Both the position numbers and the translations under genes were made by a program. The notes beneath the pieces are model-generated. The model saw nothing but the letters and a program-made list of their open reading frames with translations. It was not told where the DNA came from and searched no databases. From Myxococcota bacterium (GTDB lineage: Bacteria > Myxococcota > XYA12-FULL-58-9 > JABJBS01), in NCBI GenBank assembly GCA_036339465.1, contig JAYZAY010000019.1, positions 1 to 16,537 of the forward strand: DNA of 16,537 nt. The letters run 5' to 3'. How positions within the stretch are numbered: position 1 is the first letter of the stretch; each line of letters begins with the position of its first letter. Of the stretch, positions 2,757-16,537 are shown in pieces.

Positions 2757-4460
2757 ATGCAGCGTTTTTTGAGAAAAAAAGCTCGGTGGTTAACAGTGAT
2801 GATTTCTGGTGCTGCCTGCTTATTGGCAGGAGGGAATGCTCAAGCTTTCTGCGGCTTTTATGTTGCGGGTGGTGAGAGCAGCCTCTTTAACGATGCCACC
2901 CAGGTGGTGTTGATGCGGGACGGAACCAAAACTGTGCTCTCTATGCAAAACAACTACAAAGGCCCCCCTGAAAATTTTGCCATGGTGACCCCGGTCCCCC
3001 AGGTGTTGCAACAAGAGAACGTGAAAACGCTATCGCCTGATGTATTCAAGAAAATCGATACCCTGACGGCACCTCGACTCGTTGAGTATTGGGAGAAGGA
3101 CCCCTGTGAACCGGAATATATGGAGCGAGATGGGGTGATGATGGCTACTGCCGACAGTGCAGGAGGTGTGCCAGAAAGCGCCGTTCAGATAGAGGCCCAA
3201 TTTGAAGTGGGCGAATATGAGATTGTTGTTTTGAGTACGGGCGATTCCACGGCTCTGGAAACATGGTTGGTGGACAACCAGTACAATATTCCAAGCGGTG
3301 CAGACACTTATTTTGAACCCTACGTTGAAAGTGGGATGTATTTCTTTGTGGCCAAGGTGAAAACGGAAAAGGTAACCATGGAAGATGGCCGAGCTGTTTT
3401 ATCCCCACTGCGATTCCATTATGATTCCACGGAATTTAGCCTTCCCATTCGTCTGGGATTGATCAACTCCAGTGGCAGCCAGGATCTCATTGTTTATACC
3501 CTAGGCAAAAATCAGCGCTATGACGTTGCAAACCGCGAAAACTTAACTATCCCCACCAATATCGAAGTCATCAACGACGTTCGAAACAGCTTTGGAGAGT
3601 TTTACCGAACCCTCTTTGCTGAAACCATCGCTCAGAACCCCGGCGCAGCGGTGACTGAGTACTCTTGGGACGCAGGCAGTTGTGACCCTTGTCCGGGTCC
3701 CACTTTGAATCAAGAAGACTATATGACCTTTGGGGCAGATGTGTTGAATTCCGACGATAGCATGTGGGCTTCTTGGGTGGTAACCCGACTTCATGTTCGT
3801 TATGATTCCAACACCATTGGTGACGATTTGGTTTTTCGGGCAGCGCCGCCCATTGCTGGGGGTAGAGAACGTTACACGAGTCCCAATCTTCTTGAGACGG
3901 GTTCGATTTCTTCTAATGTCAACAATTTCCAGGGGCGCTATATCATTCGTCATCCATGGGAAGGGCCTGTGGAATGCGATGACCCCGGCACCGATAGACG
4001 CTGGGGTGGCCAAGGTGGCAGCGATTCGGTGAGTGCTCAAGCCGCCGTCAGCCCGAATTCAGGTGGCGTGGCCCCGCCCGCGGCAAATCAAAGCGACACC
4101 AGCAATACCGAGAGCAGTAACACCAATACAGGCACCGACACCAGTGAAGGCACCGACACCAGTAATACTGAGAGCAGTAACACCAATACAGGCACCGACA
4201 CCAGCAATACGGGTAACGGCGCACAAACGCAGAGTCCAAGTAAATTACCTTCCAACGATTTGAAAGATTTGGTCTACGATGAAATCCCCGAGCTAAATGT
4301 GATTCCCACCGCGACGAGTCCAGCTTTGATTGCTCCGGAGGCTACAGGCTGTGCCTGTTCTTCCAGTGATACGGCGGCGGGTTCTGGGATTCTTCTTTTG
4401 ACTTTTGGCATGACTTATTATTGGGTCTATCGCCGGCGTAGAATATTTGAACGGGTCTAA
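2757..4460 (+). CDS. DUF2330 domain protein with S/T/N-rich linker and MYXO-CTERM-like sorting signal
   Basis: RBS GAGGAG lies just upstream of ATG 2757. A signal peptide ending AQA is followed by FCGFYVAG...LFNDATQVVL, with GEYEIVVLS, LPIRLG and SCDPC motifs typical of DUF2330. The C-terminus is GCAC + TM helix + RRRR. Confidence 0.88.
   Translation: MQRFLRKKARWLTVMISGAACLLAGGNAQAFCGFYVAGGESSLFNDATQVVLMRDGTKTVLSMQNNYKGPPENFAMVTPVPQVLQQENVKTLSPDVFKKIDTLTAPRLVEYWEKDPCEPEYMERDGVMMATADSAGGVPESAVQIEAQFEVGEYEIVVLSTGDSTALETWLVDNQYNIPSGADTYFEPYVESGMYFFVAKVKTEKVTMEDGRAVLSPLRFHYDSTEFSLPIRLGLINSSGSQDLIVYTLGKNQRYDVANRENLTIPTNIEVINDVRNSFGEFYRTLFAETIAQNPGAAVTEYSWDAGSCDPCPGPTLNQEDYMTFGADVLNSDDSMWASWVVTRLHVRYDSNTIGDDLVFRAAPPIAGGRERYTSPNLLETGSISSNVNNFQGRYIIRHPWEGPVECDDPGTDRRWGGQGGSDSVSAQAAVSPNSGGVAPPAANQSDTSNTESSNTNTGTDTSEGTDTSNTESSNTNTGTDTSNTGNGAQTQSPSKLPSNDLKDLVYDEIPELNVIPTATSPALIAPEATGCACSSSDTAAGSGILLLTFGMTYYWVYRRRRIFERV
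4094..4210 (+). repeat. Intragenic tandem duplication, 60-bp period, encoding DTSNTESSNTNTGTDTS twice
   Basis: 4094-4144 and 4154-4204 are identical except for two synonymous substitutions (agc/agt, acc/act). The GACACCAG subunit occurs four times. Confidence 0.9.
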
Positions 4461-8884: not shown

Positions 8885-10144
8885 CTATTTTTGTTCTTGC
8901 AGGGTTGGGTTGTCGGCCAAAATCACCCCAATAAGATCTTCAAGCTTTTTTCTCTTGGCGGGCTCGTGGGCATAGGTCCCCCACATTGACTGGAGGCCAT
9001 TGAAAGCCTGTTGAAGTTCTGAATTATCGAAATAGGAAACCGATTGATTAAATAAATTAAACACGGGACGGAAGAAATTTTGACGACTTCTGACACTTTC
9101 ACTGGTGGCAAAGGTTCTCGGTATGGATTGAGAAAAGACCCCCTTCTTTTGTAATATAAAGCAACCATCGTTTTCAACCCGTAATTTTGCTCCCTTGTAT
9201 CTTGGAAGCATAGCCAGGGTTTTTAGTTGCTGAAAATAGAGGTCAGCTTCGGGTGGGAAGGCTCTATTGACGGCCTCTGATACGCTAGGGCTGACATGTT
9301 CAAGAGACTCAGGTCGAAAGCTAAAGCTTTCCGGATTTGCGACAGCAAAATCAAGGATCTTACTTTGCATCTCGCGAAGTTCGGTTTCTGCCGTTACGAG
9401 CGCCTTTCTACGGGCATCTAACTCTCTTGCAACGGTTTTTAGTTCGATACTCCGCGCTTCTAGGGTCTCCAGTCGCTCTTGCGCACGAATTTCGTGAGAG
9501 TCTGCTTCCGCGATTTCGTGATTGAGCTGAGCTAGTTTTGCTCTTTTTTCCCTTCCAAAGGCATCTCGGTCTTTACTGAGTTGCTCGAAGGCTTTCGCGA
9601 CTCTCCCTTCCAACTTCTGCGTTTGGAATCGAAGTTCGGCAGCTTGGACCTCCAAGGCTGATTTGGTGAGTTGGAGTTCTTGGTTGGTGTTTTCGAGACC
9701 TTTACCTGTGGCTTTGAGAATATTGATTTCCGTGTTCAAGCTATCGACTTCATTTCGAAGTTTTAGAAGCGCACCACTCAGCGCCTTATGGGCGTAGGAG
9801 TCTCGGTAGTTATTATGTTTCGCGAATGCTCCAGCGGCGATACAGGACAAAGCAATGCTGCCTCCGAGGATTTTAGTTGCGATGGGTTCAGGTGCAAAAA
9901 TGAGGACGCCTGCGGCAATGGCACCACCACTGATCAATGCATCGGTGCCATATTGTTTGGTGGCGTATTCCATATCGTCGATGGGTTGGGGAACTTCAAG
10001 ATTGCATTCACGGCCAGACACAAAGACGGCGGCATTGGATTCACAGGCGACAGGTGACGAATTAGAGCTTGGGGCGATAGAGTCTACGGGTGTCAACTCG
10101 GACGGGCTCGTGGTTAATGAAGGGATTGTATTTGTTAAGGGCAT
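8885..10144 (-). CDS. Hypothetical effector-like protein: S/T/P-rich N-terminus, hydrophobic hairpin, coiled coil, C-terminal helical domain
   Basis: Strong RBS AAGGAG precedes ATG 10144 (the ORF track's GTG at 10261 is less likely). Bilobed hydrophobic segment at 9821-9940 and a long heptad-rich region at about 9350-9790. Confidence 0.8.
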   Translation of the reverse strand: MPLTNTIPSLTTSPSELTPVDSIAPSSNSSPVACESNAAVFVSGRECNLEVPQPIDDMEYATKQYGTDALISGGAIAAGVLIFAPEPIATKILGGSIALSCIAAGAFAKHNNYRDSYAHKALSGALLKLRNEVDSLNTEINILKATGKGLENTNQELQLTKSALEVQAAELRFQTQKLEGRVAKAFEQLSKDRDAFGREKRAKLAQLNHEIAEADSHEIRAQERLETLEARSIELKTVARELDARRKALVTAETELREMQSKILDFAVANPESFSFRPESLEHVSPSVSEAVNRAFPPEADLYFQQLKTLAMLPRYKGAKLRVENDGCFILQKKGVFSQSIPRTFATSESVRSRQNFFRPVFNLFNQSVSYFDNSELQQAFNGLQSMWGTYAHEPAKRKKLEDLIGVILADNPTLQEQK

Positions 10145-10190
10145 TGTTTTCTCCTTAATTTGATTCGGTATTGATAAAGAATCTGTGGCC

Positions 10191-10418
10191 TCATGGGTGC
10201 CTGGTTTCTCGGATTGGGTTTCGAGGCTGTGTGCTGGTGACGGAGTGTAAAAATGCGCCACTCCCTAATTTAGCGACTGCCAGACCCACCTCAATCGCCA
10301 AATCGCGGGGGCAGAGGAGCTTAGACGCAATACATCCCAAAAGCCTACTGCCTGTGGGCGGCACTGAGGAGGAGCGCGTCGAGGCGATGGTGGGTTGAGT
10401 GTTACGGATAAGGGTCAC
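10191..10418 (-). CDS. Possible small protein (75 aa) upstream of the effector-like gene
   Basis: GTG start preceded by GGAG. It ends 46 bp before ATG 10144 on the same strand and has an S/T/P-rich N-terminus. No family recognised. Confidence 0.35.
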   Translation of the reverse strand: MTLIRNTQPTIASTRSSSVPPTGSRLLGCIASKLLCPRDLAIEVGLAVAKLGSGAFLHSVTSTQPRNPIRETRHP

Positions 10419-10549
10419 TGGGTGCTCCGAGAAGTGATCGTGGTGCCTTGGGGAAGGCTATGAAATCTTCGTCGGAAAGAAGCGGGAGTTGCTAATAGTT
10501 TTGGCCCACTTGCTTTGGATTCGGAAAAGCGATTATTAAACCAACACTT

Positions 10550-10574
10550 AGAAGGAGTTTTCGCTCCTTCTTTT
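10550..10574. terminator. Stem-loop, probable intrinsic terminator downstream of the 10610-11848 gene
   Basis: AGAAGGAG-ttttcg-CTCCTTCT is a perfect 8-bp stem about 40 bp after the stop at 10610. The T-run is on the + strand side and the U-tail on the minus strand is weak. Confidence 0.55.
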
Positions 10575-10609
10575 GCGGGTTTTTGGCGATGGTTCGCTGT
10601 TTATTCAGA

Positions 10610-11848
10610 CTATCTAAACAAGACCTCAAGCCCGCTCGGTTCCGTATAAACCCGGGTGCTGTGATTCACGCCGGGTACTTCCACCAAATCATGATTGTGG
10701 GGAGCGTAGAACCTATCTAGATAGGCTAGGTAGTTTGTGGCTCGCTCTAGACGTTGGCTGCCCTGCACGTTGGCCTCGCAATTGGTGGCCATGCTGCCAT
10801 GGTCGTAATTATCATCCTGTCCCATAAGATAGGTCACATCGCGGTTTCGATAACGGCTACGGATACTGTTGCGTGAGCTGGCGGCCATATAACTATTTCG
10901 GAACTCGAAGCCATATTTATACGCATTGAAAGCGAGGGGGCAAAATAAGTTATCATCATCGTCGGTCGCGGGTGGGAAATCGGGATGAGGAAAGAGAAAC
11001 GGGGGAATGGGGCCCCAGACCCAAGGGACGACAAAAGAACTTCCGTCACTGCCAGGAACGGGGCGCCGGTCGGACAAATACATATAACTCGATGGATTTG
11101 AAGGGACATATTTCACGGCGACATCAAGGTGGGATGCCGGCACCCAACGAGATCCGGCCGCGAACGGTTGGGTGAATTGTCCCCCGGCGGAGTGACCAGT
11201 GACGACGATCTCATCTAAATTTGGGAACTTATTCAGATCGGTTAAACGACTCAGGATTTGGTCAACGATGGCAAAAGAACTAAGGGTAGAACCACTGTTG
11301 ATGGAATTGTTGCCCTTTGACCAATCCGCGCCTCTCCAAAATAGTTCAAAGCTGTCTGGGTTATCGCTTTGATTTCGAAACCAGGGCACGATGACGATGG
11401 TATTGGTGCTGGCACAGGGGTCGTGTGCTTTCTCGGCGAGTTCTGTGGCGCGGCGTATTTGATTAAACATACTGGAGGCATTACGGCCCAAACCATGGAC
11501 GGCCACGATGGCTCTGCGAATTTTAGTGTTTCTGGTGCCAAGGGCATGGTTTCGGTAGTAGTGAAGTTTTTTAGCACCAAAGGAGAGTCGGCCGCGGCAA
11601 TTGCTTCCCTGGCAGGACCGTGGCGATTTTGGGCAAAGATGAGGGTGGAGTCTGGGGTGGGCATTGCTCAAACTTAATTCGTTTTCCTCTGTGGAAATCG
11701 CTAGGGCTTCCCCAATATCATCCGAGATATTTTCCAGGTCTAAGGGATATTCATCGCCGCATGCCGCGAAAAAAACGGAGACTAAAAGGGTAACCCCAAT
11801 CTTCCAAATGGATGGCTTCGCAATGAAACCCAAAGTACATAGACGCAT
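10610..11848 (-). CDS. Alpha/beta hydrolase fold lipoprotein
   Basis: RBS AGGAG and lipobox FAAC. Motifs AIVAVHGLGRNA, nucleophile GHSAGGQF, NPSSYMY, YLMGQDD (Asp), QGSQRLERA and VPGVNH (His). Confidence 0.85.
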   Translation of the reverse strand: MRLCTLGFIAKPSIWKIGVTLLVSVFFAACGDEYPLDLENISDDIGEALAISTEENELSLSNAHPRLHPHLCPKSPRSCQGSNCRGRLSFGAKKLHYYRNHALGTRNTKIRRAIVAVHGLGRNASSMFNQIRRATELAEKAHDPCASTNTIVIVPWFRNQSDNPDSFELFWRGADWSKGNNSINSGSTLSSFAIVDQILSRLTDLNKFPNLDEIVVTGHSAGGQFTQPFAAGSRWVPASHLDVAVKYVPSNPSSYMYLSDRRPVPGSDGSSFVVPWVWGPIPPFLFPHPDFPPATDDDDNLFCPLAFNAYKYGFEFRNSYMAASSRNSIRSRYRNRDVTYLMGQDDNYDHGSMATNCEANVQGSQRLERATNYLAYLDRFYAPHNHDLVEVPGVNHSTRVYTEPSGLEVLFR

Positions 11849-11880
11849 GAATGTTCTCCTGTGCGTTTGATTTTGTGATG

Positions 11881-11953
11881 GCTTAACGTTTTTGCTCCCT
11901 CAAAGATTGCTGATTTGTTGATAGGCTTTCTCAACCGTTGAACTTTTGTTCAT
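11881..11953 (-). promoter_or_regulatory. Putative activator-dependent promoter: two AACAAA-N4-CAA direct repeats plus TAAGC element
   Basis: On the + strand: GCTTA at 11881, ATTGctgaTTTGTT at 11906 and GTTGAACTTTTGTTCA at 11937. The same elements recur with the same spacing at 15832-15904. Confidence 0.6.
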
Positions 11954-11972
11954 ACGTTTCTATGACCGACCT

Positions 11973-14696
11973 ATGAATCTAAACAACGATGTTTTCGTAG
12001 GCAGGGCAGAGCTTCTAGACGACCTTCTGGAGGCATTTACCCATCAAGCAGTTCGTTGGCTGGTGGGGCCACCAGGCATCGGCAAAAGCAGGCTCATGGA
12101 AGAAGCGGTGCAAACCAGTCAGAAAAGGCGAGTCCTCATCCAGGGGTCGTGGCTCCAGACAAGGGAAGAAGCCATCGACGGTTTCACCCATTACCTCGGT
12201 GGTGCCCCCGAAGGGGACAGTCGTTTTGCTCTGAATCGATGGATCTATTCAAAATTGGGGCATCTACGGGATGGGCAGCATCCTCCTCAGGTGGTGGTGA
12301 TTAAAGACTTCCACCTAGTCGAAAGAGAATTTGCAGGCATTCTCGTACAGGCTGCGCGTAAATCAAGACTGCCCTTCGCCCTCTGCTTCTTAAGCCGTGA
12401 ATACTTCCATGAAGGCGACTTTCTAAGCTATGGATTCCAACGTTTGACCTTAGGTTCTCTTAAGGTGGATGAATCTCGTCTTTTGGCCAATTCTTTGGGA
12501 TTCCCACTGGAGAAAATCCCCGAGCATGTTCACGGCAATCCGGGCCTGATGATTCTTTATGCCCGGCACGGCCATGTAGACGTGGCATCGTGGATAGAGG
12601 ATGAATTACGAAAGGCACCCGAGGCGGTAAGAAAACTGCTTTGGCGCCTCTCTTTGGTGGATACCAAAGAGCAGCTTTGGTGGGCCTGTCACGGATCTGG
12701 AACGTGCTTGGAACTCGATTATATCCAGCAACGAAGTCTTCTTCAGGAGAATGGCCAAATTCTAAGAACCATTCGTCCTTATTTACGTCATGGATTGCGA
12801 GAGAGTGGTCACTTCGAAAGCACAGAGAGGCAACTTTTTGAATACCTGCTAAGCAAATCCGATCTCGAAATGCGAGATTTGCGTCGACTTACCTCGCTTT
12901 CTTCTAGATACGCCACCGGTGCACAACTAAGACTGTTTTTGAGCCTCTATGCGACCACTGAAGATGTTTCGAAATCCAATTTGGGACTCTTGCAGATTCA
13001 AATCAACGAACTCCTTTTGTCTGATGATCTGCCTCCCACTTCCAAGCTTCAGGGGTACCGGGCTCTTTATGAGAATGCGGATGTGCCACGCCTTATGGAG
13101 GCCCACGACCTTTTCGAAGGTTCAGAAATCGAGGATGAATCTCTTTTGGGGAGATTGTGTTTGCTGCGAGCTTGGGGGTTGACCCGGACGCGAAACCTAA
13201 ACGGCGCCGGAGCGGAATATTGGAAAGGATTTTTGGACAACCGTGCCGAGCATAGAGAAGGGTATGAAGTGGTTTTGGAGCAAGTGGCCCACATTTATAG
13301 CTACGTGGGATTTCATCTTTCCCCCGATAGCCAAGTGGCTGAAATAGCATCCCAACTTCGCGATGAAATTGTTCTTCCAACCAATGTTCAACACGCCTAC
13401 CAACGAATGCAGGATACCGCAAAAGCGGCGTGGAATTTGGATTTCACCAAGGCCACCGAGGTGTGTAGGGAGGCCATTGCGCTCTTTTCTGGAGCGAAGT
13501 TAGAACAATTTGCAGAATATTGCCGTTATACCTTGCTCATGCTCTATTTTGCCACCTGCGATGAGGATGGGATGGTGGGTCTTTTGGAAGACTTAACTAA
13601 ATCACCCGGAAACAACGATTATAAAGACGAGTATGTCACATTCATAGAAACCATTGTCCAATGGCAGAGAGGTGATATTTCCAAGTTGAATGCCTATGCC
13701 CAGCTGTCAACTTCGGCGACATCCCCCGCACACGATTTGCTTGGGGGCCCCTATTTTCAAGTTTCCTTCCCCCTATGTTTTGAAGTTATTGGTGACCGCC
13801 ATTTTGGTGTGAAGCCAAGGCTGTCTCAGATTGAGCTCATGGCTTCGGCTTTATCCAATCAAAGATTTAGTATCTCCCATCTTTTGGCAGCCATTGCTTT
13901 AGCTCAGAATTGTGTGTTGCATGGTCAATACAACGAAGTGAAGGGACTCTTGGCGTCGATGAGCGGTTATCATCCCATGGGTGGACTTCATGCCATGGCT
14001 CTACATCAATTGATGATGCCCCAAGATCCCATGATGGCCACTCAAATGTTGGGCGTGTTGATTGAGCAATTGGGGATTTATCCTGAACGCCTAACCACCC
14101 CCTATTATATCGTTTTATTAACCCAAGCTGTGCTTCGCGACGGGATTGCGCCGGAGATTTTGCTGACTGCCGTGGACTCGACTCCTGGTTTTAATAAGCT
14201 GCATGGGCAAAGTCGTTGGATTATCGATATTTGTCTCGATATTTTAAGGGGAACTGAGCCCGAGGTGGGGGGGGCTCAACTGATCCCCTTGGATTTAATC
14301 CAATTGATTCGGCGCCAAGTTATGTCTGCGGTGGTCCCCGTGATTGACAAGACCGTCAAAAATTCTCCTGAGGCAGAAAAGCTCCGTGGTTATATCGATG
14401 AGAATTGGTTTGAAAAGCTGGAGCTTGGAAAATACGCTGAAGATGAAGGTATATCTAGAACATCCATGTGGCAAGCTTTTCGGGGTGCCTATGGCCTTTC
14501 GCCAAAGCAATACCACAATAGGAAGAGGATCGAGGAGGCCAAGGTGATTTTAATGCAAACCAATTGGTCGGTGACAGATATTGCCTATGAATGTGGTTTC
14601 TCTGATACGGCACAATTTTGTCGGGTCTTCAAAATCACCACTGACCATACCCCATCCCAATTCCGAAGCCAGGCTTCTAGGGCAGTGGTGAATTGA
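11973..14696 (+). CDS. Large transcriptional regulator: N-terminal STAND/AAA-type ATPase, helical middle, C-terminal AraC-family HTH
   Basis: FVGR start motif, Walker A GPPGIGKS, Walker B-like VVVIKDFH and GNP motif. The C-terminus RIEEAKVILMQTNWSVTDIAYECGFSDTAQFCRVFK...TPSQFR is an AraC signature. Confidence 0.88.
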   Translation: MNLNNDVFVGRAELLDDLLEAFTHQAVRWLVGPPGIGKSRLMEEAVQTSQKRRVLIQGSWLQTREEAIDGFTHYLGGAPEGDSRFALNRWIYSKLGHLRDGQHPPQVVVIKDFHLVEREFAGILVQAARKSRLPFALCFLSREYFHEGDFLSYGFQRLTLGSLKVDESRLLANSLGFPLEKIPEHVHGNPGLMILYARHGHVDVASWIEDELRKAPEAVRKLLWRLSLVDTKEQLWWACHGSGTCLELDYIQQRSLLQENGQILRTIRPYLRHGLRESGHFESTERQLFEYLLSKSDLEMRDLRRLTSLSSRYATGAQLRLFLSLYATTEDVSKSNLGLLQIQINELLLSDDLPPTSKLQGYRALYENADVPRLMEAHDLFEGSEIEDESLLGRLCLLRAWGLTRTRNLNGAGAEYWKGFLDNRAEHREGYEVVLEQVAHIYSYVGFHLSPDSQVAEIASQLRDEIVLPTNVQHAYQRMQDTAKAAWNLDFTKATEVCREAIALFSGAKLEQFAEYCRYTLLMLYFATCDEDGMVGLLEDLTKSPGNNDYKDEYVTFIETIVQWQRGDISKLNAYAQLSTSATSPAHDLLGGPYFQVSFPLCFEVIGDRHFGVKPRLSQIELMASALSNQRFSISHLLAAIALAQNCVLHGQYNEVKGLLASMSGYHPMGGLHAMALHQLMMPQDPMMATQMLGVLIEQLGIYPERLTTPYYIVLLTQAVLRDGIAPEILLTAVDSTPGFNKLHGQSRWIIDICLDILRGTEPEVGGAQLIPLDLIQLIRRQVMSAVVPVIDKTVKNSPEAEKLRGYIDENWFEKLELGKYAEDEGISRTSMWQAFRGAYGLSPKQYHNRKRIEEAKVILMQTNWSVTDIAYECGFSDTAQFCRVFKITTDHTPSQFRSQASRAVVN

Positions 14697-14714
14697 TCTC
14701 TGCTTAACTCCCCT

Positions 14715-15767
14715 TTATCTGCGCTTTCTTCTAACTTTCTTTTTAAGTCTAGTAGAACGCTTGGTGAACGAAATTTCCCGGCATGGTAGTGGGGTTTTAG
14801 GATGATCCGTGATGATCACCAATTCACTATTCTGAACTTCTATATCACAGATGATATGTCCCAGAGGGATGTTACTTTCTAGCGCATCTTCTAGTTGGGT
14901 GAGTTCCAGGTCAGAGATATTTTCCGATAGCATATCGGTTATTGAATTTCCTATATTGGTGGTGTTGGCTTGCATGAAGTCTAAAATAGGGGCGGCATTG
15001 GTGATTGGAAGAGAGGTCGTAATCCCACTGGGAGTATCTATCACCACCTCTAGGCTCGCAATAATATCGGTTTGATTGTGGCTCAATTTAACAAAGAGAT
15101 CGATATCTAAATCGGCAACAAAAATTGAGTGGTTCCCATTGGGAAGGATACCTTGCAGGGCCAGGTTATACCATGGAAGTAGAGGAAATGCGGGTGAAAT
15201 CGGTGGACACATGACGCCTGTCTGGGTTTCAAACGAAATCAAAGCCGAGTCTTCGGAACCATCCAATTGGACCCGGAGGCTGGGAATGGAACCACGATTG
15301 TGCCAATCGGCGCGGAGATTTTCGAGGGAGAGTTCATTCAATGATGCGTCTGCTTGATAGGTGATAAAGCAATACGCCGGAAGTGGAGGAAGAGGACCTG
15401 GGATGGGCACTAAAGTAGGAAGAGTTCCATGCACCGAATAACCGGTTTCAAATGCCTCGACCGCTTCTTGGGGAAGGTTTAGGGGGCCAAGTATGTTCAG
15501 ACCGGCCATAATCACAGCAGGTCCCGCTCCGATGGGGCCGGGGGGGCAGTTAGCAAGCAGATCGACAGAAGTGGTGTTGCTATTAAAGACGAGGGGTTGC
15601 GTACATGCTTCAAAGACCTCTTCCAGAGCATTGGGAAGCCTTTGATCGTAGGTGGTGCGGGTGACCGAGCCGTATTGGGCGTCGCTGAAGACACCACAGC
15701 CACTCCATAGGGTCGTGAGCAGAAATAATGTGCCCTGAGAAAGTATTTTGTGGGTGAATAATTGCAT
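14715..15767 (-). CDS. Hypothetical lipoprotein with strongly basic C-terminal tail
   Basis: RBS AGGAG before ATG and a signal peptide with lipobox-like WSGC. It is a 350-aa open frame ending KRSTRLKKKVRRKRR. Confidence 0.8.
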   Translation of the reverse strand: MQLFTHKILSQGTLFLLTTLWSGCGVFSDAQYGSVTRTTYDQRLPNALEEVFEACTQPLVFNSNTTSVDLLANCPPGPIGAGPAVIMAGLNILGPLNLPQEAVEAFETGYSVHGTLPTLVPIPGPLPPLPAYCFITYQADASLNELSLENLRADWHNRGSIPSLRVQLDGSEDSALISFETQTGVMCPPISPAFPLLPWYNLALQGILPNGNHSIFVADLDIDLFVKLSHNQTDIIASLEVVIDTPSGITTSLPITNAAPILDFMQANTTNIGNSITDMLSENISDLELTQLEDALESNIPLGHIICDIEVQNSELVIITDHPKTPLPCREISFTKRSTRLKKKVRRKRR

Positions 15768-15831
15768 TTTATGGCTCCTATGAGAGCGATGTCTAAGTGG
15801 ACGTCGCTGCGGTGTTCTTCATTGTGGCTAC

Positions 15832-15904
15832 GCTTAGCAGGAGACTCAGAAAGAGAATTGAGCTTTTGTTTGCGGTGTGTTGGACCGAGTTGAATTTTTG
15901 TTCA
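15832..15904 (-). promoter_or_regulatory. Second copy of the direct-repeat promoter architecture
   Basis: On the + strand: GCTTA at 15832, ATTGagctTTTGTT at 15857 and GTTGAATTTTTGTTCA at 15889. Confidence 0.6.
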
Positions 15905-15947: not shown

Positions 15948-16537
15948 TTATGGCGCATTGACGTACGCTTCATCCAGAATGGAGAAGCCCTCAGGACTGG
16001 GGTTAGGCGATGGACTGCCTGATATATCTGGCACGGTACCCGTCCAGTTTTTATAGCCATAGCCTCGGTCGGAATCGAGGTTCCAATCTGCGAAGACAGC
16101 GTTGCGGTCATTGACATCGGCGGACGTGAGGGCTGTTTGAATCATCCAGGCCGTGTAGTCACGGGCGTTGCCGATGCTGTATCGCTTTAGATGGAGGGCT
16201 CTCGTTTGTTTTGGTGATGTGCAAGAGGCGTAGAGGCGAACCACCTGGGAACTGAAGGCTTCGTCGGTCATGAATTGAGCAGGAGGCGCGGAGCTTTCAT
16301 AAAATGAACCTACGGTGAGGGGATGCTCTACCAAGCTGGAGGGACACGTTAGATGGTCCACAATGGCGGGAGGTAAGCGAGGATAAAGTGCTTGCTCAAA
16401 GCCACAGGGGATACCACTGATAAACAGAGAGCCTAACGGAGAGCCCAAGTCTTCGGGCTCGGGGGCCACGAGACCATGAATCGATAAAAATTGCATGGCG
16501 TTCTTATAGACCTGAAACGCCAAGAGATGGATGCCAT
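15948..16537 (-). CDS. 3' part of a larger gene running in from beyond the window; possibly the C-terminus of a Zn-dependent phospholipase C-like protein
   Basis: The frame is open to the window edge. The terminal motif WNLDSDRGYGYKNW is recalled from long bacterial proteins annotated in this family. The catalytic region is not visible. Confidence 0.55.
   Translation of the reverse strand, partial: GIHLLAFQVYKNAMQFLSIHGLVAPEPEDLGSPLGSLFISGIPCGFEQALYPRLPPAIVDHLTCPSSLVEHPLTVGSFYESSAPPAQFMTDEAFSSQVVRLYASCTSPKQTRALHLKRYSIGNARDYTAWMIQTALTSADVNDRNAVFADWNLDSDRGYGYKNWTGTVPDISGSPSPNPSPEGFSILDEAYVNAP

Follow-up and report, generated by a model that had tools for sequence, protein, structure and literature searches.

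Matching two-box putative promoter cassettes flank a predicted STAND-AraC regulator gene in a Myxococcota genome and suggest a local two-target regulon

The Myxococcota contig JAYZAY010000019.1 (assembly GCA_036339465.1) carries two intergenic cassettes built on the same pair of direct-repeat boxes, one on either side of a gene for a predicted STAND ATPase with a C-terminal AraC-type DNA-binding domain. The window, which is the whole stretch of 16,537 nt that was analysed, is an entire contig (C19) of a 4.17-Mb genome (4,169,038 bp in 102 contigs, 92.8% complete), and near-identical DNA is present in marine and seawater metagenome runs. The cassettes are probably activator-dependent promoters with two direct-repeat boxes bound by the STAND-AraC protein encoded between them. 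Binding of the boxes by this protein appears highly probable from the sequence comparisons described here, activation of both flanking lipoprotein genes as drawn is fairly probable, and the two genes likely form a two-target regulon.

A preliminary description of this DNA had reported that the two regions align almost exactly, and its coordinates were all correct on re-check. GCTTA is found at 11881 and 15832, with ATTG at +25 and TTTGTT at +33 in both regions, and a 16-mer at 11937-11952 recurs at 15889-15904 with 15 of 16 positions identical. On the minus strand the elements form direct repeats with periods of 31 and 32 bp, and TAAGC follows downstream in both cassettes. The order on that strand is box, 19 or 20 nt, box, 21 nt, TAAGC, a leader with AGGAG, and ATG, the distance of 21 nt from the proximal box to TAAGC being exactly the same in both. 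Between the 16-mer at 11937-11952 and the regulator ATG (11973) there are 20 nt. The boxes and the genes concerned are the following.

11907..11918, minus strand: proximal box 1, ACAAATCAGCAA, which would abut or overlap the −35 region
11938..11949, minus strand: distal box 1, ACAAAAGTTCAA, within the 16-mer 11937-11952
15858..15869, minus strand: proximal box 2, ACAAAAGCTCAA
15890..15901, minus strand: distal box 2, ACAAAAATTCAA, with a natural variant at 15895 in its N4 spacer
11973..14696, plus strand: the 907-aa STAND-AraC regulator, identified by Pfam, alignment, predicted structure and Foldseek
10610..11848, minus strand: target 1, a 412-aa predicted lipoprotein of the alpha/beta-hydrolase type, with a GHSAGG nucleophile motif
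14715..15767, minus strand: target 2, a 350-aa predicted lipoprotein of no known family, with WSG-C24

The close alignment holds for the anchors and the distances between them and fails for the spacers, of which one agrees at just 3 of 21 positions and the other at no more than 7 of 19. That the spacers are unrelated while anchors and distances are kept points to selection on the anchors and distances rather than to copying. The sole variant listed for either intergenic region is the one at 15895; it was seen in three of eight metagenome runs, from three studies (single low-depth contigs with patchy cover).

The whole arrangement was found solely at these two sites; a motif common at random positions is what the preliminary description had named as refuting its proposal. 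The pattern TTG-N4-TTTGTT-N17..20-TTG-N4-TTTGTT has two matches on both strands of the genome, and both are these cassettes. The 16-mer with at most one mismatch occurs genome-wide at the same two places only, and at nine when two mismatches are allowed. The single core ACAAA-N4-CAA is common, with 248 copies; pairs of cores 12-45 bp apart number three, namely both cassettes and one simple microrepeat. In a position weight matrix (PWM) scan of the whole genome, the window pairs scored 34-38 bits and the next independent pair 27, and no third target or further regulon member was found. Shuffling of the window spacers produced two boxes in 27 and 21 of 20,000 trials, with a motif that had been defined on these spacers. 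The shared 16-mer, which had been offered as evidence, is by itself not rare, since 808 of 1,861,485 pairs of upstream regions share a 16-mer with at most one mismatch (7 of 4,326 pairs within 6 kb); it is the complete arrangement that is rare.

Outside this genome, we compared the loci of two homologues of the regulator, L092 in a Kofleriaceae metagenome-assembled genome and L171 on a metagenome contig (the loci of the other family proteins, P0001 and P0003-P0014, were not included). The regulators are 29% (L092) and, over the part present, 34% (L171) identical to that of the window. The core ACAAA-N4-CAA is present twice in each locus, in tandem boxes located 10-16 nt past the regulator stop (GCACAAACGTTCAA and GCACAAAGATCCAA in L092, GCACAAAGGTTCAA and GCACAAACATTCAA in L171). 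These boxes are conspicuously conserved between the two loci, and CGCACATTCCATCAAGCG is conserved downstream of them. In both loci the co-oriented gene that follows begins with a lipobox-like sequence and does not resemble target 1 or target 2 of the window. The preliminary description had proposed the neighbouring ATPase-AraC protein as the reader of the boxes and a check of their conservation in other genomes; the tandem recurrence of the same core next to a distant homologue, whose target gene is unrelated, supports that proposal.

Several controls bear on this recurrence. A PWM of the four window boxes alone ranks the homologue boxes first and second in each locus, and when the homologue spacers were shuffled two cores appeared in 0 of 20,000 trials for each. 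No other pair exists in the 9.3-Mb genome that carries the homologue pair, and a stricter pattern, built partly from L092, occurs in 1 of 401 genomes, the homologue's own. No core pair was found in 157 unrelated AraC loci (1.46 Mb; 68 single cores), in 29 other STAND loci of the family of L092, in any of four family genomes lacking a full-length regulator match, or with target homologues from genomes in which no regulator was found. A 12-nt PWM made from the homologue boxes, with core limits taken from the window, ranks pair 2 first and pair 1 43rd in the window genome. As a separate observation, a lone strong box without a partner, ACAAACATTCAA, is present at L313:478 (genome G401, contig C670), where it is the sole other match to the 12-mer pattern in that genome.

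It could be argued that the boxes are read by an unlinked factor, be it a different regulator or an alternative sigma factor, and that the STAND-AraC gene is a mere neighbour, given how common the single core is and that the genome is incomplete. A housekeeping factor should, however, have paired sites elsewhere in the genome and in relatives, and the pairs are found solely beside this gene family in both genomes, which makes such a factor quite unlikely. It is still less likely that the cassettes resemble each other by chance, as remnants of a local duplication or as terminator-like hairpins. Nearby upstream regions do sometimes share 16-mers, as counted above, a decayed copy of 10266-10751 exists elsewhere in the genome, and site 2, located 44 nt beyond a stop codon, is nearly palindromic. 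Nevertheless, the spacers are near random identity with anchors and distances kept, the hairpins have little stability (−6.8 and −2.2 kcal/mol for 30-nt pieces), the box pair is unpaired in the L092 fold, and the core pair is found again next to a homologue that is 29% identical.

The regulator consists of a nucleotide-binding oligomerization domain (NOD), a long helical arm and sensor region, and a C-terminal pair of AraC helix-turn-helix (HTH) motifs. The NOD has the motifs GPPGIGKS (Walker A), VVVIKDFH (Walker B) and GxP, and the N-terminus gives weak matches to AAA_16, AAA_22 and nSTAND1. PF12833 (HTH_18) scores 73 bits against a cut-off of 33.6, and the protein is the sole HTH_18 match in the genome at its completeness of 92.8%. 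The predicted structure (mean per-residue confidence, pLDDT, 84; predicted template modelling score, pTM, 0.65) is all-helical from about residue 280 to 785, and the AraC domain is next, at about residues 795-907. This domain has the C-terminal double HTH of about 100 aa expected of AraC/XylS proteins, and it matches the DNA-binding domain of AdpA with a template modelling (TM) score of 0.83 by target and a root mean square deviation of 1.5. The NOD core of STAND proteins, composed of AAA+ nucleotide-binding and helical domains (NBD-HD) and a winged helix, is present, the winged helix being judged from the fold match and not residue by residue. The arm with a repeat-type sensor and the terminal effector domain are present also, and the Atlas structure rows include clusters bearing tetratricopeptide repeats (TPR); the regulator itself has no TPR match in Pfam, and no NCBIfam equivalog reaches its cut-off.

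The top Foldseek matches of the model are PH0952, Avs3, 8bob, Avs4 and Apaf-1, and the Atlas model of the regulator aligns with LuxR-type ATPase regulators over nearly its whole length (TM 0.59-0.70). MalT's DNA-binding domain is of the LuxR type. The corresponding GerE domain (LuxR HTH), by which MalT/LAL proteins are recognized, is absent from the regulator and from seven homologues, which have HTH_18 instead. According to the models, then, the regulator is a MalT/LAL-like protein with an AraC domain in the usual place of the LuxR domain.

Similarities with MalT/LAL proteins include the layout of NOD, arm and helical sensor, the C-terminal position of the DNA-binding domain, asymmetric boxes near the promoter and the Foldseek match to the maltose-system regulator entry 8bob. 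The output here is, in contrast, an AraC double HTH rather than LuxR/GerE, and the targets are predicted lipoproteins rather than sugar transport. The archaeal STAND protein PH0952, with a TPR sensor (PDB 6MFV), heads both the Foldseek matches of the model (E 1.4e-7) and the non-AraC matches of the family profile (E 1.6e-7), although PH0952 has an N-terminal ArsR-like domain (PMC6468293). With AraC/XylS activators such as Btr, AraC and RhaR/RhaS the system shares HTH_18 and two direct repeats, the proximal one at the putative −35; it differs in having a STAND switch of about 790 aa as input in place of a small ligand or dimerization domain, and in a box period that varies between loci. SARP-LAL/AfsR proteins such as PimR are likewise ATPase-containing activators, cooperative on direct repeats and with few targets (PMC5930380), but their SARP domain is N-terminal and their units are 11-bp heptamer repeats. 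The STAND transcription factors for which a description was found carry LuxR, SARP or ArsR-type domains (PMC6468293, PMC5930380). Full-text searches of open-access literature listed no description of a STAND-AraC regulator, though the fusion could appear in surveys of STAND architectures in subscription journals or supplements, and the pairing of STAND and AraC domains is apparently undescribed.

The promoter elements that can be proposed for the three genes are listed below.

11856..11860, minus strand: Shine-Dalgarno sequence AGGAG of target 1, from the sequence
11880..11885, minus strand: likely −10 element TAAGCC of target 1, with a putative +1 near 11873; this and similar hexamers occur at the −10 of apparently leaderless promoters
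15775..15779, minus strand: Shine-Dalgarno sequence AGGAG of target 2, from the sequence
15831..15836, minus strand: likely −10 element TAAGCG of target 2, preceded by TGn, with a putative +1 near 15824
11938..11966, plus strand: likely leaderless promoter of the regulator, with TTGAAC at 11938-11943, 17 nt, TATGAC at 11961-11966 and the ATG at 11973

The genome appears, from its upstream regions, to use leaderless sigma-70-type promoters. TTG is found at −35/−36 before the ATG in 181 of 1,896 upstream regions, where 83 are expected, TAnnnT peaks at −12, and the −10 elements often lack the last T. Among 88 TTGA-anchored regions, many of which are anchored by chance, the −10 position is occupied by TAAGGG twice and by TAAGGC, TAAGAC, TAGGCC and TAAGCC. 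Such hexamers at the −10 of apparently leaderless promoters make TAAGCC and TAAGCG plausible −10 elements. If TAAGC(C/G) is the −10, the proximal box falls at about −45 to −34 over a non-consensus −35, and AraC-family proteins often bind beside or over the −35, as does Btr on its direct repeat (PMC3333878). A generic scan for promoters gave 7 hits where chance predicts 7.1. When compared by eye with the consensus, GAACTT at 11940 was rejected as an RpoE/AlgU-type element, with no −10 at 16-17 nt.

The preliminary description had also suggested that the regulator controls its own gene. The regulator ATG has no Shine-Dalgarno sequence and is preceded by TTGAAC at −35 and TATGAC at −12, and this TTGAAC, read on the opposite strand, is the GTTCAA that ends distal box 1. 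With the likely −35 inside distal box 1, an occupied box would block the regulator promoter. Nonetheless, no box is found upstream of the L092 regulator, so autoregulation is not conserved there, and for autorepression in the window we see about an even chance.

Other observations also weigh against the cassettes being activator-dependent promoters bound by the STAND-AraC protein. L092 and L171 are 75% identical to each other, and the outside support is thus one lineage. The period of 31-32 bp, regarded earlier as a feature of the operator, does not extend to the family, being 14-15 bp in L092 and L171, and the first A of AACAAA is not conserved, with C in the homologue loci. A 17-nt PWM of the homologue boxes ranks the window pairs just 60th and 416th. 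The first recognition helix differs between the regulators (SRTSMWQA vs SRFAISRR) despite the same core in both loci. Three of five family relatives without the regulator match a loose pair pattern, the matches looking like simple repeats from their letters. There is no TAAGC at +21 in the homologue loci, which have CATTCC at +20 and CAAGCG at +28; CATTCC, 20 nt past the second box and so near the 21 nt of the window, could be a third weak box. Nor is TAAGC enriched upstream of genes overall in the window genome (339 vs 336 in shuffled sequence).

The last two of these points would also suit the alternative that the same regulator binds and represses the lipoprotein genes, or that the boxes are placed otherwise relative to the real promoter and TAAGC is not the −10. 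A sigma-70-like TAGACA-18-TAAAAT at 15795-15766 could be such a promoter, though it is too near the start codon for the leader. We consider this alternative unlikely: the fixed distance of 21 nt from box to TAAGC at both sites, with no −35 resembling TTGACA, is the usual geometry of an activated promoter, and bacterial members of the STAND class are mainly activators (PMC6468293).

A different reader of the distal 16-mers could be LexA. They would then be SOS boxes through which LexA, either alone or together with the STAND-AraC protein, keeps the regulator and perhaps the lipoprotein genes repressed until the DNA is damaged. The SOS box of this genome is CTGAAC-N4-GTTCAG, similar to the M. 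xanthus LexA box (PMC9705874), a likeness that suggests an organism related to Myxococcus; it is located upstream of lexA, recA, a dnaE2-like and an imuA-like gene (the last two named by eye), at C85:67237, C85:57329, C89:21702 and C89:3377. Both distal 16-mers contain TGAAY-N4-GTTCA, and site 1, TTGAAC-TTTT-GTTCAT, matches at 10 of 12 positions, equal to the box of lexA itself, 20 nt ahead of the regulator start codon and over the likely −35. A PWM was built from 37 boxes of relatives; these came from 53 upstream regions, of which 16 without a match were dropped, so the selection is biased to the consensus. It ranks the four SOS sites 1, 2, 3 and 8, whereas site 1 is 369th and site 2 below 1,361; their scores of 8.5 and 5.3 bits compare with a training range of 9.5-20. 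Both distal sites lack both outer C/G bases, as does none of the 37 training boxes, and the variant at 15895 alters half-site position 6, where 69 of 74 half-sites have C. Moreover, neither the proximal boxes nor the homologue boxes are palindromes, in contrast to Myxococcus-type SOS boxes, and the neighbours are a hydrolase-type lipoprotein, a lipoprotein of no known family and the regulator, rather than DNA-repair genes. From these comparisons LexA is unlikely as the main reader of the boxes, and we give SOS control of the cassettes little credence; weak binding of LexA at site 1 may occur.

Two side observations concern the SOS genes of relatives and of this genome. Of 24 relatives, 22 have the SOS box upstream of lexA; among recA loci it is present in 15 of 29, with a second group of recA genes that has none (L038-L061, L063-L077). 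Just downstream of the lexA gene of the window genome, at about 790-1040 of L027, is an array of imperfect repeats of about 27 nt built on GAGTCAGTCCTGAA.

Activation by the STAND-AraC protein could proceed as follows, by analogy with MalT, which multimerizes for cooperative binding to its boxes (PMC4381067). Binding of an inducer to the helical sensor region would be followed by exchange of ADP for ATP in the NOD and by multimerization of the protein, so that its AraC domains fill both boxes. The copy on the proximal box, at about −45 to −34 and against a poor −35, would recruit RNA polymerase to the TAAGC(C/G) −10, switching on the esterase-like secreted lipoprotein and the second lipoprotein. 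Bound to distal box 1, the protein would also mask its own leaderless −35 on the opposite strand and thereby provide negative feedback.

A bolder extension, which we regard as improbable, is that the STAND-AraC gene and its operator form a portable module, in which an NLR-like ATP switch is coupled to an AraC output. The DNA-binding heads of its multimer would be stepped by about 15-16 bp, a single step being used in the Kofleriaceae loci (14-15 bp) and a double one here (31-32 bp), and unrelated secreted lipoproteins would have been captured in each lineage. In the window the module would respond to a lipid or a molecule derived from prey by inducing an esterase and a lipid-carrier lipoprotein, with the distal box doubling as a weak LexA site. 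The regulatory logic itself is ordinary, that of a local activator on direct repeats beside its own targets. An operator, two targets and a feedback site are predicted for the regulator, which makes it directly testable. The cassettes would serve as a ready reporter in a ligand screen for a new STAND sensor, and the differing box spacing in two lineages offers a way to ask how a STAND multimer sets operator geometry.

Target 1 has a lipobox-like FAA-C31 (by eye) and 511 homologues, many of which match PF12697 or are named carboxylesterase; the protein itself has no direct Pfam match and no solved relative by sequence. Target 2 has one homologue among 60 relatives (28% identical), and a word search gave only itself. 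Its predicted fold has a pLDDT of 31, and its Atlas model leans to TULIP lipid-binding folds (LBP/BPI/JHBP-like) with TM 0.41-0.51, below the bar for naming. A lipid-scavenging role of the targets is a guess. The stretch 10266-10751, which reaches into the target 1 gene, has a second copy at C53:8169-8660 (79% identical, at a contig end); this copy takes in the 3′ end of the hydrolase gene with an internal stop and is apparently a decayed duplicate. A short overlapping open reading frame (ORF) at 10191-10418 recurs in it.

The regulator family is rare. An exhaustive search returned 12 proteins at E ≤ 1e-30, one of them a fragment of the regulator itself. Fourteen aligned homologues are 24-36% identical and keep the Walker A, Walker B, GxP and AraC motifs. 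A word-index search found no relative at E ≤ 0.001, and the genomes of 60 relatives contain AraC-domain or P-loop pieces only. Sweeps of genome sets gave no further member (0/400 with the full profile and two candidates scored per genome, 0/137 and 0/400), and a sweep with the N-terminal profile gave 0/400 save one NOD-only match; these sweeps scored just 2-14 candidates per genome, so misses are possible. The 137-genome sweep, like the 29-locus control above, includes the unpublished genome G439, on which nothing else reported here depends. Scans of the collections returned mostly generic AraC matches, with 1 of 79 and 1 of 80 loci belonging to the true family. AraC proteins of about 910 aa in genome G055 were considered as relatives and rejected, being of a beta-propeller sensor type (by eye). 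There are three of them (L021-L023), with a two-component-type beta-propeller sensor, and each adjoins predicted secreted or lipoprotein genes.

The genes at the locus are, in order, the 412-aa gene (minus), the 907-aa gene (plus), the 350-aa gene (minus) and a 5′-truncated gene (minus, from 15948), and the third-codon-position G+C content of the locus genes is about the genome mean. The truncated gene (15948-16535), upstream of cassette 2, has no Pfam or NCBIfam match; a contig from metagenome run X3 reaches about 490 nt past the contig end beyond it. A coiled-coil-like protein of no clear family is encoded at 8885-10261 and has a paralogue on contig C16 (32%). The DUF2330 gene at 2835-4081 has a paralogue at C54:22934-24189 (75% identical), and the window copy carries a duplicated 51-nt Ser/Thr/Asn-rich stretch at 4094-4204. 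Elsewhere in the genome, at C11:177779-181384, a Ser/Thr kinase ORF is followed by a stop and then by an in-frame STAND-TPR ORF, and the two are possibly one split gene or a case of stop read-through.

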